The position numbers and the translations under genes were made by a program. 64,000 bases of DNA from a phage: sequence record PZ452596.1, one strand, 5' to 3'. Below the pieces are notes generated by a model. That model searched no databases and was not told where the DNA came from. It saw only the letters and a list, made by a program, of their open reading frames with translations. Positions 920-40,980 of this stretch are shown here, one piece after another (the first letter of the stretch is position 1; each line of letters begins with the position of its first letter).

Positions 920-1254
920 TTCATAATCACCAGATAAGCAGATTTAGCAGTTTCAACACGATAAATTTCGTGACGAAGTTTAGTTATACTTTTAATAACA
1001 GAACTAATTATATTCTGCCCATCTTTAAAGCGGTTTTTCTTATCAATAAAAACTGCGCCAACCATCTTTTTGTGAAGCTCAACTGGATACTTCGTCACAA
1101 TAATAGCATCATACACAGAAGGATGAATACTATTCACCAGAGTATCATTCATTAAAGTTATTCTAATGAACTGTGCTGTTTCAGAATCAAGCGCTCTATG
1201 ATCGCCAGTATCATTTTCAAGACAATTATCAATTATATCAGTTAAATTCATCAT
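916..1254 (-). CDS. hypothetical protein (cd-pseT cluster)
   Basis: 112-aa ORF, stop/start overlap with neighbours. Confidence 0.5.
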   Translation of the reverse strand: MMNLTDIIDNCLENDTGDHRALDSETAQFIRITLMNDTLVNSIHPSVYDAIIVTKYPVELHKKMVGAVFIDKKNRFKDGQNIISSVIKSITKLRHEIYRVETAKSAYLVIMK

Positions 1255-2349: not shown

Positions 2350-2413
2350 ATTTACCTCACATAATTTTCTTCAAGCCAATTAATAATATCCCAAGTTTCA
2401 TGGTGCAAAGCCA

Positions 2414-3614
<1,201 letters not shown>

Positions 3615-5049: not shown

Positions 5050-5050
<1 letters not shown>
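4995..5050 (-). promoter_or_regulatory. early promoter candidate upstream of alc
   Basis: minus strand GTTTAC -18- TATAGT. Confidence 0.4.
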
Positions 5051-6637
<1,587 letters not shown>

Positions 6638-6664: not shown

Positions 6665-7843
6665 TTAAAAGTATTTTTTAAAACTCATCATAACTTTATC
6701 ATCAACATCATTATCAATCTGTGCAACAAGATAAGATGACAGTTCTACTTCTTGTGGCGCGGATTGAACATTATCAGAATTAAGATATTCACGAATCCAA
6801 GGATATGGATGTTTAACCGGAGCATCGGTAATTGGGCATGGAAGACCGCACTGTTTCATACGAGATACAGTTAAGTAATCAATAAAGCTCCACATGCTAT
6901 TTGTATTTAATCCAGGAACATCGCCATCTTTAAATAAATGAACTGCCCAATCTTTTTCTTGGCGGTTAACTTCCATGAAAATATCAACTGCTTCTTGTTC
7001 ACACTCTTGAGCAATTTTAACCCATTGATCGCCATCAGTACCAGATTGAAGTTGACGAATAATATATTGGGTGCCTTTAAGGTGAAGCTGTTCATCGCGT
7101 GCAATGAACTTCATAATCTTGGCATTACCTTCCATGATTTCCATGTTCTTATGGAAGTTAAAGGTACATGCGAAAGATACATAAAAACGAATAGCTTCCA
7201 ATGCGTTGATTACATGCAAACAGAGGTAAAGAGATTTCATTAGCTCACGCTTCCAATATGTCTCATGCTCAATAGCATCTTCAATAACGTCTTCGTCTGC
7301 ATTAATTTCTTTTTGGTATTCGATATCAGCTTTAGCGTTTTCCCAATAACGAGTTTTAATCAGAACATCATCATAATAACGTCCAATGGATTCAGCACGT
7401 TTCATAATAGCTTCATCTAATACAATTTCATCAAATACCTTCGATGGATCAGTATAAAGATTTCGCATGATATGTGTATATGAACGGCTGTGAATAGTTT
7501 CACTAAAAGTCCATGTAGCAACCCATGTATCAAGGCTTGGGTCTGAAATTAATGACATAAGTACAGCAGACGGTGCACGTCCCTGAATGCTATCTAGAAG
7601 TGATTGATACTTCAAGTTATTAGTAAAAATATCTTGCTGATACTGAGGAAGCTTGTTAAATTGTGCAGCATCCATCATTAAGTTTACTTCTTCAGGCCGC
7701 CAGAAAAATGACAATTGCTTTTCGGTTAAATCTTCAAAAACTTTATGACGTTGAATATCATAACGCGCAATACCAAGACCTGAACCGAAGAACATAGGTT
7801 CTTTTAAAACATCAACTGGATTTGTATTAAAAACTGTGCTCAT
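6665..7843 (-). CDS. nrdB: ribonucleotide reductase small subunit
   Basis: 392 aa, uninterrupted (no group I intron, unlike T4 nrdB). Confidence 0.93.
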   Translation of the reverse strand: MSTVFNTNPVDVLKEPMFFGSGLGIARYDIQRHKVFEDLTEKQLSFFWRPEEVNLMMDAAQFNKLPQYQQDIFTNNLKYQSLLDSIQGRAPSAVLMSLISDPSLDTWVATWTFSETIHSRSYTHIMRNLYTDPSKVFDEIVLDEAIMKRAESIGRYYDDVLIKTRYWENAKADIEYQKEINADEDVIEDAIEHETYWKRELMKSLYLCLHVINALEAIRFYVSFACTFNFHKNMEIMEGNAKIMKFIARDEQLHLKGTQYIIRQLQSGTDGDQWVKIAQECEQEAVDIFMEVNRQEKDWAVHLFKDGDVPGLNTNSMWSFIDYLTVSRMKQCGLPCPITDAPVKHPYPWIREYLNSDNVQSAPQEVELSSYLVAQIDNDVDDKVMMSFKKYF

Positions 7844-10716: not shown

Positions 10717-11577
10717 TTATACCGCCATTTTTCCTTTCAAGACACCGTGGGACTGATAATCTTTGAGAACGAAATCTTTAGGCCTGAGTTTAAGAATGTA
10801 TTCCAATTGTTCTTTAGTAGAAAGATAGCGGAATTTATAAGGCAATCCGCCTATTACCAGTTCACAAAGCTCTTTAGGTTCACGACGTAAAATTTCTTTA
10901 CATTGTTCTACGTGATTCATATAGATATGAGTATTACCGCCAGAAAATATCAAATCTCCAGGAATAAGATTACACATCTTAGCTACAATATGAACTAACG
11001 CAGCATATGATGCAATATTAAATGGAAGGCCGAGAAAAACATCTACTGATCGTTGATACCACTGCAAATCTAAATAGCCATTACGCACATTAAACTGATA
11101 GAACACATGACAAGGCGGTAATGCCATATATTTAAGTTCAGCTGGATTCCACGCAGAAACAATTTGACGCCTATCATTTGGCAGTTTTTTAATACGATCA
11201 ACAACTTCTATAATTTGGTCTACACCGCCAAAATCACGCCACTGTTTTCCATAAATTGGACCAAGTTCACCGCTATGGTATCCTAAATCTTTTGCTTGAT
11301 TTTCGTAATTTTCATCCCAGACTGTTTTGCCTTGAATTAATGAATCATGTTGAATTAATCGTAAATCATTGACATTTGTGCTTCCTGATAAAAACCAAAG
11401 CAGCTCAGCAATGCAAGCTTTCCAGGCGAGCTTCTTAGTTGTTACCGCAGGAAAACCTTTAGTTAAATCCCAGCGCAATTTAGTACCGAACAAAGCAATT
11501 GTTCCTGTGCCTGTTCGGTCATCGGTTTCATAGCCATTTTCAAAAATGTCTTTAATTAAATCTTGGTATTGTTTCAT
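10717..11577 (-). CDS. td: thymidylate synthase
   Basis: 286 aa, ThyA active-site region ALPPCH; uninterrupted (no td intron or I-TevI). Confidence 0.95.
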   Translation of the reverse strand: MKQYQDLIKDIFENGYETDDRTGTGTIALFGTKLRWDLTKGFPAVTTKKLAWKACIAELLWFLSGSTNVNDLRLIQHDSLIQGKTVWDENYENQAKDLGYHSGELGPIYGKQWRDFGGVDQIIEVVDRIKKLPNDRRQIVSAWNPAELKYMALPPCHVFYQFNVRNGYLDLQWYQRSVDVFLGLPFNIASYAALVHIVAKMCNLIPGDLIFSGGNTHIYMNHVEQCKEILRREPKELCELVIGGLPYKFRYLSTKEQLEYILKLRPKDFVLKDYQSHGVLKGKMAV

Positions 11578-31459: not shown

Positions 31460-32784
31460 TTGATTTCCTCTAAATCTTTGGTGTATTCTGTAACTACATC
31501 AGTAGTTTTCCAATATTCGTTTTCTTCTTTTTTAGCTTTAGCTTCTTCAGCAAGTTTCTTCGCTTCATCGGAAGTCATATGAAAAATATTCATTCCAACT
31601 AGTTTATCAACATAAGAAGAATACATATCAATTTTCGAAAGTTCTTCGGTCAGTTCTTTACGAGTTTTACCCTGTACAACAATTTCACCTGAAATTACTT
31701 TCTTAATGAAATGCGCCTTGGCAAAGGCTAAACGAAAAGCTGATTCAGTTTCTTTGATTTTGTTATCAATTCGTTTTTGGACATAAGTTTTACGAACTTC
31801 AACAAAGTCTTTAATTAAATCAACTACGTTATCGTAAACTTGCAGTTTTCCTTTCTCATTAATAACCGTAATATTCTGAGAACGACGCTCAATCAACCCA
31901 AAGTCTTTCATAATTTTTGCATGGCGTTCTTCTTCATTATCGCTCAAAGAATATTCTTTACGGAATTTAACTTTGAACCCAAAACCATGCTCACCACAAG
32001 CATCATCCCATGTAATGAAGCCTTTATCTTCAAGTGGGTCTAAGATTTTACTCACATAAGTTTCACGATCATACTTATACGGAATCTCAGTGATATGCAT
32101 TTGAGTTCGTGAAGTAAACTTATATGTTCCACGAATTTCATATTGGCCATCAATCTCAACGACTTCACCACGAAATTCTGGGAATTCTACCTTCGGTTTA
32201 GTTACTTTCTTTCCTTGAAGAGCTTGTAATACAGCTTTCTTGACAGAAGAAACACTATGAGGAAGAATGTAAGTTGCATAACCAGTTGCAATACCGGAAA
32301 CGCCATTAAGAAGAACAGTAGGAATAATAGGCAAATAGAAAGCAGGCGGAATATGTTCTTTATCTTGATGTACCGGAGCATATTCAGTATCTTTATATAC
32401 GTTATAGAAATTTTTACTTACACGAGCAAAAATATAACGACTTGCCGCTGCCTTTTGGACAGTACGAGAACCAAAGTTTCCTTGACCGTCTAACAAAGGA
32501 AAGTTATTATTCCAAGTATTAGCCATCAAAGCCCCCGCATCTTGTGCAGAGTTTTCACCATGATGATATCCAAGGTCAGCTACACCACCTGCAATAGAAG
32601 CAAGTTTGTGAAACTTATCTTTATTTCCTCGCGCCAAATCAAGAGCTCGAGCAATAACAAATCGTTGAACTGGCTTAAATCCATCAATCATATTTGGAAT
32701 AGCACGATTTTCAACCGTGTACATAGCATAAGCCAATGCTTCATTATCAATGATACTTTTTAAATCGCGATTATTCAGTTGCAT
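31456..32784 (-). CDS. 52: DNA topoisomerase II medium subunit gp52
   Basis: 442 aa, GyrA-like region; matches T4 gp52. Confidence 0.95.
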   Translation of the reverse strand: MQLNNRDLKSIIDNEALAYAMYTVENRAIPNMIDGFKPVQRFVIARALDLARGNKDKFHKLASIAGGVADLGYHHGENSAQDAGALMANTWNNNFPLLDGQGNFGSRTVQKAAASRYIFARVSKNFYNVYKDTEYAPVHQDKEHIPPAFYLPIIPTVLLNGVSGIATGYATYILPHSVSSVKKAVLQALQGKKVTKPKVEFPEFRGEVVEIDGQYEIRGTYKFTSRTQMHITEIPYKYDRETYVSKILDPLEDKGFITWDDACGEHGFGFKVKFRKEYSLSDNEEERHAKIMKDFGLIERRSQNITVINEKGKLQVYDNVVDLIKDFVEVRKTYVQKRIDNKIKETESAFRLAFAKAHFIKKVISGEIVVQGKTRKELTEELSKIDMYSSYVDKLVGMNIFHMTSDEAKKLAEEAKAKKEENEYWKTTDVVTEYTKDLEEIK

Positions 32785-32788
32785 AAAT

Positions 32789-32929
32789 TTACCATACTAG
32801 TGAATGTAGTGCCATAATAACATCAGAAATGAAAAGCACGACTTGAATTAATCCGAACATTACTCCATAATATAGTGCTACTAATAAAGTAGCAAGGGCT
32901 AATGAATAGCCCAAGATTTTCTTAATCAT
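32789..32929 (-). CDS. small hydrophobic membrane protein (ac / 52.1-like position)
   Basis: 46-aa ORF MIKKILGYSLALATLLVALYYGV... found by hand. Confidence 0.35.
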   Translation of the reverse strand: MIKKILGYSLALATLLVALYYGVMFGLIQVVLFISDVIMALHSLVW

Positions 32930-33080
32930 TAGTAGATAACAACACAAATGTTAAATATGCACACATACCCTGAGCTAAAGCTTGCGAAAACACACTGCTG
33001 GCATCAATACAGATAGTTAAAACACATGCTACTATCCAACAAATAAATGAAATAACTCCTAATAATTTTGCAATATTCAT
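32922..33080 (-). CDS. small hydrophobic membrane protein (ac-like position)
   Basis: 52-aa ORF MNIAKLLGVISFICWIVACVLTIC... found by hand. Confidence 0.35.
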   Translation of the reverse strand: MNIAKLLGVISFICWIVACVLTICIDASSVFSQALAQGMCAYLTFVLLSTND

Positions 33081-33087
33081 ATTTTCC

Positions 33088-33168
33088 TCACTGGCGTCCG
33101 AAGACGCCTTTAGTTTTAAGATTATTACGATAGAACTGCATCACGTGTTCGTTGTGGAAATTACTCAT
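33088..33168 (-). CDS. stp: Stp peptide (activator of host PrrC anticodon nuclease)
   Basis: 26-codon ORF translating to [26 protein letters not shown]; start overlaps ndd stop by 1 nt; not in ORF track. Confidence 0.8.
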
Positions 33169-33626
33169 TAATATGCCTGCAAAACGAATTTAAAATTATC
33201 AGCCAACATACGGTTCATTTCTTCAAGTGTTTGATACTCAGAATGATGATTACGAGTAAACGCTAAAGCTAACTGTCCTTTTCCAAATCCCGTCGTCAGA
33301 GGTTTCATCTTAGAAGCAGGCAGATAAAATACTGTGTATGGAACATTGTTATTTGCAATAGTACGTGCAAGCTGAGACCGACGTTGACGAATATGACTTA
33401 GAACTGCACTGAATCCTTGCTTAGAACGCTGATTACCTACATAAAATCGTGCTGACACACATGGATTACTAAATGGACGACCATCTAATTTACTTACTAA
33501 AAAGTAAAATCCAGGTTTAGATAAAATATCTTTATGCGGAGTTCCCAAAAACCACTCACCGCCCTTGATTGTACCAATAACAGTAGCGCCTGCATTATTC
33601 AGATCAGTAACAGTCATGTATTTCAT
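33168..33626 (-). CDS. ndd: nucleoid disruption protein Ndd
   Basis: 152 aa from [18 protein letters not shown]...; track ORF is N-terminally over-extended. Confidence 0.9.
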
Positions 33627-33684
33627 ATTAATTTCCTCTAAATTATTTTCTACTCCAAGGCCGCATGAATACGCGGCCATTAAA

Positions 33685-33900
33685 TTAATCGTCGCAGTCG
33701 ACGCTCAATTCCCAAAACTCTTCTACAGTATAAGTTTCAGTATCATTTTCAATACAGAAACGTTCATTACTATTATTTGCTAAAGTAGCATTAACTGTCG
33801 GTTTCTCGCCAGTGCTCTTAAGAGGTGAAATACGAATTAACTGATCACCATTATCTAAACAAAAAATTTCACCAACTTTTACATCTTTAAAGATTTTCAT
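33685..33900 (-). CDS. hypothetical protein (ndd-denB cluster)
   Basis: 71-aa ORF. Confidence 0.45.
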
Positions 33901-39124: not shown

Positions 39125-39165
39125 CAATTAATTATACCACATCCTTGTGGTAAAGTAAACTACTG
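39125..39165 (-). promoter_or_regulatory. early promoter upstream of rIIA.1/rIIA
   Basis: minus strand GTTTAC -16- GGTATAAT. Confidence 0.5.
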
Positions 39166-40980
39166 GCTCATCCATTCTTTACGAAGGTCAGCATTATCTC
39201 CCATGAGCATTTCAAAAAGCTCTTTCCAGTTCTCAGGAAGTTTAACAACATCATATACTGGATTTTGAATCATCTCACGATATTCAGATTTTTCCAAAGA
39301 GCCAAGTCCCTTAATATAACGGATACTATGTTTAGGTAGAGCATCTTTAGCACTCTCATATTCAGCGACTGTATAAAACCATTCTTGTTTTTTACCGACC
39401 TGAGCGATGATTACAGGAGTTTTGACAAAGCGAATTCGTCCTTGCTCAAACAATTCTGGCCAATTACTAAAAAATCCGAGCAGAGAAGGATAAATGCTTC
39501 CTAAACCATCATGGTCAGCATCAGTCATAATAGCAATATTATGATAATTCAAGTTTTCAGCTTTTTCACCTAGAACTAAACCCGTGATTGCGCAAATATC
39601 AAACAGTTCTTTGTTTTTAAGCATATCAGCATATGACATACCCCAACTGTTGAGAACTTTACCACGCAATGGATAACCACCATGAAGTTCTTTATCACGA
39701 ACATCAATAAGATATCCGATAGCAGAATCACCCTCAGTCAAGAAAAGAGTAGTGTCAGCATCTTTACCACAAAGATTCGCTTTAATATGTTTATGAACCT
39801 TAGCTTTAGAAGCCTTTTTAGCTGCTTTAGTTTCTGCTGCTTTTTCTGCTGCCAATTTACGAGCTAATGCTGCTTCAATAATTGGCATCAAAATTGCTTC
39901 ATTATTTAGAATAGCGCGTGAAATCTTTTTAGCATCAAGTTGAATATGACTACGGATTTCACCAAATGGAGAAGTCAAACGCTCTTTAGTTTGAGAATCA
40001 AATCGCATGTTTTTCATATCACGAACAAACATAACGATAGTCAAACATTCTTTGACACGTGCTTTAGTTACATCAATTTTGAACTTACGTTTGATTTGTG
40101 GAATAAGGTCTTCACAAATATCATCCATAACACAGTCAATGTGATGGCCACCATTCTTAGTGTGAATGTTATTCACATAAGTTAATTGACGAAATCCATC
40201 CGGTGAACGACCAACCGCAATAGAACAATTTTCTTGTTCTTGAACAATAGCATGTTCATCATACTGTCGTGCATATTTCTTAAAATTGCCCTGAACCTTT
40301 TTACCATTAAAGGTAAATTGAATATCAGGATAAACAACAGCAAGTGTCTGGAGACGATCCAGTGTAATGTCAAGATAAACTTGGGACAGCTCATTAGTTT
40401 CAAATGACATAAAATCAGGAATGAAAGTAACACGAGTTCCTTTCCATTTTCCAGGAATATCTTCCCATGATTTATTTTCCATGCCATTTGAACAACGAAC
40501 TACAATATTATTTTGACCATCACCAGTTTCACCGACAAACATCACAGAAAAAATGTTTGTCAAACTAGAACCAACACCATTCATACCACCGGTGACGCGT
40601 TCTTTATCATCACCGAAGTTACCACCTGCTTTTGGAATAGTCCACGCAGCAACAGGACCAGGAATTTCTTCACCTGTAGGTGTTTTAACCATCGCCTGTG
40701 GAATACCGCGACCGTTATCTTCAACTGTTACCTGATTATTTTTAATAGTAACATTAATTTTATTTGCGAATTTAAACTTAGTACGAATACCTTCATCTAC
40801 TGAGTTATCAATAATTTCATCAATAAGCTTAACAAGACCAGGTACATACTGAACACTTTCCCATTTACCAAACAGAAAGCGCTCATGCATTTCATTAGCA
40901 GAAGAGCCAATATACATGCCGCTACGCTTTTTGATATGTTCAATATCGCTCAGAATTTTAATTTCATTCTTAATCATCAC
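39160..40980 (-). CDS. 39: DNA topoisomerase II large (ATPase) subunit, unsplit gene 39
   Basis: 606-aa GyrB-like ORF in one frame; in T4 this protein is split into genes 39 and 60. Confidence 0.9.
   Translation of the reverse strand: MMIKNEIKILSDIEHIKKRSGMYIGSSANEMHERFLFGKWESVQYVPGLVKLIDEIIDNSVDEGIRTKFKFANKINVTIKNNQVTVEDNGRGIPQAMVKTPTGEEIPGPVAAWTIPKAGGNFGDDKERVTGGMNGVGSSLTNIFSVMFVGETGDGQNNIVVRCSNGMENKSWEDIPGKWKGTRVTFIPDFMSFETNELSQVYLDITLDRLQTLAVVYPDIQFTFNGKKVQGNFKKYARQYDEHAIVQEQENCSIAVGRSPDGFRQLTYVNNIHTKNGGHHIDCVMDDICEDLIPQIKRKFKIDVTKARVKECLTIVMFVRDMKNMRFDSQTKERLTSPFGEIRSHIQLDAKKISRAILNNEAILMPIIEAALARKLAAEKAAETKAAKKASKAKVHKHIKANLCGKDADTTLFLTEGDSAIGYLIDVRDKELHGGYPLRGKVLNSWGMSYADMLKNKELFDICAITGLVLGEKAENLNYHNIAIMTDADHDGLGSIYPSLLGFFSNWPELFEQGRIRFVKTPVIIAQVGKKQEWFYTVAEYESAKDALPKHSIRYIKGLGSLEKSEYREMIQNPVYDVVKLPENWKELFEMLMGDNADLRKEWMSQ

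Follow-up and report, generated by a model that had tools for sequence, protein, structure and literature searches.

Stp, PrrC and related anti-restriction systems

The best described relative of the gene considered here is stp of phage T4. Its product acts on PrrC, an enzyme that stays latent while bound in the type Ic restriction-modification (R-M) complex EcoprrI and is encoded with it in the locus hsdM-hsdS-prrC-hsdR (PMC3014915; PMC1484252; PMC12707154). T4 Stp is both necessary and sufficient for the activation of PrrC, which also depends on hydrolysis of GTP and on DNA whose EcoprrI sites are unmodified. Activated PrrC cleaves tRNA-Lys 5' of the wobble base, and the phage enzymes Pnkp and Rnl1 repair the cut. 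T4 mutants of the pnk- or rli- type are restricted on prr+ hosts, and this restriction is suppressed by mutations in stp (PMC3014915; PMC1484252; PMC12707154).

T4 Stp relieves restriction by the enzymes EcoprrI and EcoR124I and leaves their modification activity untouched, and it does not counter restriction by EcoKI and EcoBI, which are of type Ia (PMC3014915). Loss-of-function suppressor mutations cluster in residues 4–14 of the peptide, and relatives of T4 hardly vary in the N-terminal 18 residues. Removal of the eight C-terminal codons lowers activity only moderately, the C-terminal eight residues being dispensable (PMC3014915). In addition, Stp-like peptides were noted in 2015 in the T1-like phages Stevie and TLS (PMC4319613).

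Stp resembles the DNA mimics T7 Ocr and ArdA in that all are inhibitors of type I restriction carried by phages or plasmids that can be sensed by back-up abortive-infection systems of the host. Unlike Ocr and ArdA, Stp is a peptide of 26 residues that is specific for type Ic enzymes and has no action on type Ia EcoKI and EcoBI.

Identification of stp

The DNA analysed here is a 64,000-nucleotide stretch of phage sequence (record PZ452596.1), referred to below as the window. The reading frame between ndd and ac on its minus strand (Table 1) is almost certainly stp (suppressor of prr), encoding a 26-residue T4-type Stp peptide that would, by analogy with T4, have the biochemical activities described above. 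The frame reads ATG AGT AAT through to CAG TGA and is intact from start to stop. The ndd TAA stop codon (33170..33168) shares its final A with the stp ATG, giving a TAATG overlap.

The first-pass annotation, made from the sequence alone, had described a 26-codon minus-strand ORF overlapping the ndd stop by one base, which translation of 33168..33088 and the TAATG confirm, and had taken its product for T4 Stp. Alignment to T4 stp bore this out exactly, with all 26 residues identical to T4 Stp (NP_049878). The DNA of the two genes shares 79 of 81 nucleotides, and the T4 gene (NP_049878.1; NC_000866, 165505..165585) differs from the window copy solely by two silent third-position changes (CAC/CAT and AAT/AAC). 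It also has the same position between ndd and ac, the same TAATG overlap and the same 3' hairpin. No difference was detected between the window copy and stp of Enterobacteria phage RB27 (RB27_260, YP_009102465.1; NC_025448.1, 161554..161634), and the 1.1 kb around stp is 100% identical to RB27 (KM607000/NC_025448). The same 1.1 kb has 95–99% identity to about 400 further Tequatrovirus genomes. The gene is thus already known at this locus, as both the RefSeq and the GenBank records of RB27 annotate stp.

Profile searches agree with this identification. PF08133 ("Anticodon nuclease activator"), a dedicated Pfam family of 26 profile positions, matched residues 1–26 of the peptide on profile positions 1–26 with E = 2e-21 and a score of 75.3 bits (gathering cut-off 25), and PHROG 6763 matched with E = 4e-21. 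A tblastn search of the peptide against 2.3 Gb of phage DNA gave E = 1e-10, with 423 records matching at 99% identity or more, and Stp is almost invariant over hundreds of Tequatrovirus genomes. The full-length profile match is accompanied by an intact frame of about 26 residues, a conserved N-terminal stretch of 18 residues and the ndd-stp-ac position that characterise the family.

Table 1. Coordinates and supporting evidence for stp, its neighbours and the tRNA repair genes in the window
Feature	Position	Strand	Description	Evidence
stp CDS	33088..33168	minus	ATG 33168..33166, 26 codons, TGA stop 33090..33088	Translation; identity to T4 NP_049878; PF08133; PHROG 6763; RB27_260
ndd (nucleoid disruption protein)	33168..33626	minus	Directly upstream of stp; T4 ndd annotated as 151 aa	PF06591 on residues 19-170 of the 170-aa ORF
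ac (acridine resistance, 52 aa)	32922..33080	minus	Downstream of stp	PHROG 2501; annotated ac in RB27 and T4
C(UUCG)G tetraloop hairpin, GGCGUC-UUCG-GACGCC	33093..33108	minus	In the final stp codons (G-V-F-G-R)	Fold
pseT (Pnkp, polynucleotide 5'-kinase/3'-phosphatase, 'healing')	2414..3319	minus		Pfam AAA_33 and HAD_PNKP; PHROG 505
rnlA (RNA ligase 1, 'sealing')	5050..6174	minus		Pfam RNA_lig_T4_1 and T4_Rnl1_C; PHROG 562

Gene neighbourhood and expression

The minus-strand early genes of the region are arranged in the order ndd.1, ndd, stp, ac, 52.1 and 52, as in T4 and RB27. The TAATG overlap suggests translational coupling between ndd and stp, and translation of stp is probably coupled to ndd in this way. 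The Shine-Dalgarno sequence 5' of stp in the window is weak, consisting of just AGG at −10 to −8, and expression would therefore probably depend on termination and reinitiation at the ndd stop. With so weak a signal, the view that stp would be expressed in this phage draws on the coupling to ndd and on the analogy with T4.

The open frame of ndd reaches position 33680 (170 aa), which places 18 extra codons (33627..33680) upstream of the start given in Table 1, and RB27 annotates this long form. Both the homology (Pfam match) and the T4 annotation begin at the methionine of MKYMTV at 33626, and the ndd start in RB27 is probably over-extended. In phage ime09 (JN202312.1), a 57-aa ORF without a Pfam match (956..1129) separates ndd from stp; it is the end of this inserted ORF that stp overlaps, and stp is not coupled to ndd.

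Several other features of the window were observed. Position 32700 corresponds to RB27 position 161166 and, by this offset, the point at which the end of the linear RB27 record meets its start lies at about 36700. The window spans that junction; its assembly must therefore have been circularly permuted or opened elsewhere, and the DNA most likely belongs to RB27 itself or to a nearly identical isolate. Accordingly, the result of a 24-kb megablast query was divided among several places. Judged by ORF length, nrdB (6665..7843, 392 aa) and td (10717..11577, 286 aa) seem uninterrupted, unlike their T4 counterparts with group I introns. One 606-aa ORF (39160..40980) encodes the topoisomerase large subunit with no gene 39/60 split and, from this ORF length, the translational bypass of gene 60 is presumably absent in this phage.

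Homologues and selection

Comparison loci were gathered via the neighbouring ndd gene, by tblastn of Ndd against GenBank phages with diverse loci retained, so that the sampling was unbiased with respect to stp. An Ndd query of IMG/VR returned five near-identical loci, and the GenBank phage loci were used for comparison. Three distant tblastn matches (K1ind2, U136B and STGO-35-1) were added to the ndd-based set.

An intact stp frame of 25 to 27 codons was found in T4, T2, RB68, ime09 and ECO07P3 (Tequatrovirus) and in SP18 (Gaprivervirus), and the frame is unbroken in every Tequatrovirus and Gaprivervirus copy examined. Such a frame is also present in three siphophages with unrelated backbones, namely K1ind2 (Kagunavirus), U136B (Tlsvirus) and Salmonella phage STGO-35-1. 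All extracted copies exceed the PF08133 gathering score. No Stp frame was found downstream of ndd in LF82-8 (Mosigvirus), phiE142 (Carettavirus) or PG7 (Karamvirus), which agrees with a 2026 preprint that noted the absence of Stp from a Mosigvirus.

Residues 1–11 of the window peptide are identical in T2, RB68 and SP18. T2 Stp matches the window to residue 18 and then has a different C-terminus (NFGILGFKK), without the hairpin. RB68 Stp differs by L17F and lacks the final Q. SP18 Stp carries F12W, Y13H and N15H and has another C-terminal part (KLTGVFGRP). The siphophage peptides (those of the T1-like phages TLS, Stevie and U136B, of STGO-35-1 and of K1ind2) are about 26 aa long, have the core in common with the window and score 35–67 bits against PF08133. 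The shared core, residues 2–14, can be written S-(N/S)-(F/W)-H-N-E-H-(V/I)-M-Q-(F/W)-(Y/H)-R. The eight C-terminal residues of U136B and STGO-35-1 Stp are unrelated to those of T4. Unlike the window copy, the siphophage genes lie in unrelated backbones, have no coupling to ndd and possess strong Shine-Dalgarno sequences of their own (GAGGTGAT, AAGGAG).

Synonymous and non-synonymous differences from the window copy were counted over codons 2–18 by the Nei-Gojobori method. K1ind2 has nine synonymous and no non-synonymous differences (pN/pS 0, Fisher p = 2e-10). The counts are 9 and 7, respectively, for U136B (pN/pS 0.13), 7.5 and 10.5 for STGO-35-1 (pN/pS 0.24), and 4 and 4 for SP18 (pN/pS 0.17). 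Codons 19–25 are relaxed, with pN/pS of 0.3–0.8. By these codon comparisons, the Stp peptide is under purifying selection, and the pattern of a constrained N-terminal part followed by a relaxed C-terminal part matches the genetics of T4 stp (PMC3014915).

The K1ind2 gene (NC_041898.1, 40077..40154; 2501..2578 of the fetched locus) is an unannotated 25-codon Stp gene that scores 67 bits against PF08133 and sits in a feature-less gap of about 800 nt after the endolysin gene. Its wholly synonymous differences suggest a transfer between myophages and siphophages that would have been followed by purifying selection. In the T1-like phage U136B (MW598258.1), the Stp-like peptide has a GTG start (fetched locus 2393..2473). 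About 570 nt downstream of it, at 3043..3606, is a 187-aa protein that, of the Pnkp domains, matches just the phosphatase (HAD_PNKP) and lacks the kinase; the 5 kb fetched contain no annotated RNA ligase.

tRNA repair genes and proposed function

The first-pass annotation had also placed pseT and rnlA in the window, and both are present there, as their Pfam and PHROG matches and their identity to T4 confirm (Table 1). PseT is 93% identical to T4 PseT and conserves the P-loop GCPGSGKS and the DVDGT sequence, the catalytic motifs of T4 Pnkp. RnlA is 98% identical to T4 RnlA over 374 aa and conserves the TKEDGS/KEDG (Lys99) motif; its ORF starts at a GTG at 6210 in the ORF list, and the T4-equivalent ATG is at 6174. 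The window thus encodes a bifunctional Pnkp (P-loop, DxDxT) and an Rnl1-type ligase (KxDG, tRNA-specific C-terminal domain), the two components of the tRNA repair pathway. No tRNA genes were found in the window, so it holds no phage tRNA-Lys to bypass PrrC. Stp, PseT and RnlA drew no PADLOC matches, the expected outcome for counter-defence genes of a phage.

The T4 model would carry over to this phage because its Stp, Pnkp and Rnl1 are 100%, 93% and 98% identical, respectively, to those of T4. The statement of the first-pass annotation that Stp inhibits EcoprrI and thereby activates PrrC matches the T4 literature (PMC3014915; PMC1484252; PMC12707154). By analogy with T4 Stp, the peptide would bind the host type Ic R-M complex, EcoprrI as well as EcoR124I, and block its restriction activity. 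In the rare E. coli strains with prrC in the type Ic locus, this binding would unmask the latent PrrC anticodon nuclease, which would then cut tRNA-Lys 5' of the wobble base. The phage Pnkp and RNA ligase 1 would heal and reseal the cut tRNA-Lys, and exclusion on prr+ hosts would strike only pseT- or rnlA- mutants. We infer that this phage would likewise depend on pseT and rnlA on such hosts.

T-even DNA, with its glucosyl-HMC, is in any case resistant to type I restriction, so the advantage that Stp would give this phage is not obvious. The gene might be stp and yet have been selected for a function other than type Ic anti-restriction, directed at other abortive-infection modules embedded in type I systems or at an unrelated host target, with PrrC activation just a trap set by the host. 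In addition to the resistance of T-even DNA, the near invariance of Stp despite that resistance favours such a function, as does the fact that a 2025 review still calls the mode of EcoprrI inhibition unknown (PMC12707154). Against it, peptides of the Stp family occur in the siphophages K1ind2, U136B and STGO-35-1, and no data point to another target. A different selected function is thus considered quite improbable, and type Ic anti-restriction is retained as the proposed role of Stp.

A 3' hairpin within stp

The final codons of stp, GGC GUC UUC GGA CGC C, form a hairpin with a perfect 6-bp stem and a UUCG loop closed by C-G. With a predicted free energy of −11.5 kcal/mol (z = −3.5), this fold makes up 95% of the ensemble. 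The GAGG Shine-Dalgarno sequence of ac, which overlaps the stp stop codon, follows 3 nt after the stem. On the plus strand the stem is followed by TTTAGTTTTA and has a terminator-like score; some GenBank records carry the label 'terminator' at this site. T4, RB68, ime09 and SP18 share the hairpin, its loop being UUUG in SP18. T2, with another C-terminus, lacks it, as does K1ind2, in which the GVFG residues are kept and the stem is not. Being patchy across lineages, the hairpin is therefore regarded as a lineage-specific addition and not as the cause of frame conservation.

These features bear on the proposal that the conserved element is mainly an RNA signal, stabilising the mRNA, gating translation of ac or terminating antisense (plus-strand) transcription, with the reading frame secondary. 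The stability of the hairpin, its position directly before the ac Shine-Dalgarno sequence and its terminator-like score and label all speak for such a signal, as does the functional dispensability of the C-terminal eight residues of Stp (PMC3014915). However, the hairpin covers only 16 of the 81 nucleotides of the gene, whereas conservation is strongest in the N-terminal 18 codons, which are variable at synonymous sites. Moreover, GVFG persists in K1ind2 without the stem, T2 lacks both stem and motif, and an Rfam scan of 32700..33800 found no RNA family. An element conserved mainly as RNA is consequently very improbable.

There is an outside chance, shared between two refinements of the reading of the gene as a selected coding sequence, that one or the other holds. 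The hairpin (codons 21–25) may be dual-use: as RNA it may have been selected to gate translation of ac, to shield the transcript or to end late antisense transcription, and it would also constrain the C-terminus of Stp, otherwise dispensable, in phages of the T4 lineage. Stp may just as well benefit a glucosyl-HMC phage through a target other than type Ic enzymes. As the last six codons fold into this stable hairpin, the 3' conservation of stp among close relatives of T4 could be due in part to selection at the RNA level.

Annotation of stp

As the first-pass annotation had remarked, stp was skipped by the ORF track, because the default minimum of 60 aa exceeds the 26 aa of the peptide. When the minimum of the ORF list was lowered to 20 aa to show stp, the gene appeared as a 26-aa ATG ORF. 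A total of 49 ORFs of 20 aa or more overlap the 3.5 kb around stp, and since short ORFs are so plentiful, the case for stp rests on homology and selection. A 21-aa ORF with a TTG start on the plus strand (33068..33133) overlaps stp and is taken as a chance ORF, because it is antisense to a peptide that is itself conserved at the protein level.

The extent to which stp is annotated in related genomes was assessed in an evenly spaced tblastn sample of 36 T4-like GenBank records with the Stp peptide at 96% identity or more. A stp feature was present in three, an ambiguous 'hypothetical protein' in six and ndd alone in 27. The feature is thus missing from at least 27 of the 36 sampled records, or about three quarters.

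The idea that stp is itself a chance short ORF in the ndd-ac spacer with no protein product, to which the abundance of short ORFs, the weak Shine-Dalgarno sequence and the lack of an annotated gene at this site in most T4-like GenBank records lend some colour, is scarcely credible and already effectively refuted by the identity of the peptide to one of T4 that is characterised by both genetics and biochemistry, by the Pfam match, by the mostly synonymous differences of the N-terminal 18 codons in unrelated backbones (pN/pS 0–0.24; 9 of 9 in K1ind2) and by the intact frame in all Tequatrovirus and Gaprivervirus copies examined.

Significance

The finding of stp adds no new knowledge, and its under-annotation is the sole practical point. 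The gene is a real and functionally important one of 26 codons that is passed over by length-thresholded ORF callers, and it is in this sense a matter of annotation quality control. For the biology of the phage, stp places it in the classic arms race of EcoprrI and PrrC against Pnkp and Rnl1. From the sequence, the presence of stp predicts that pseT or rnlA knock-outs of this phage would be excluded on prr+ E. coli.
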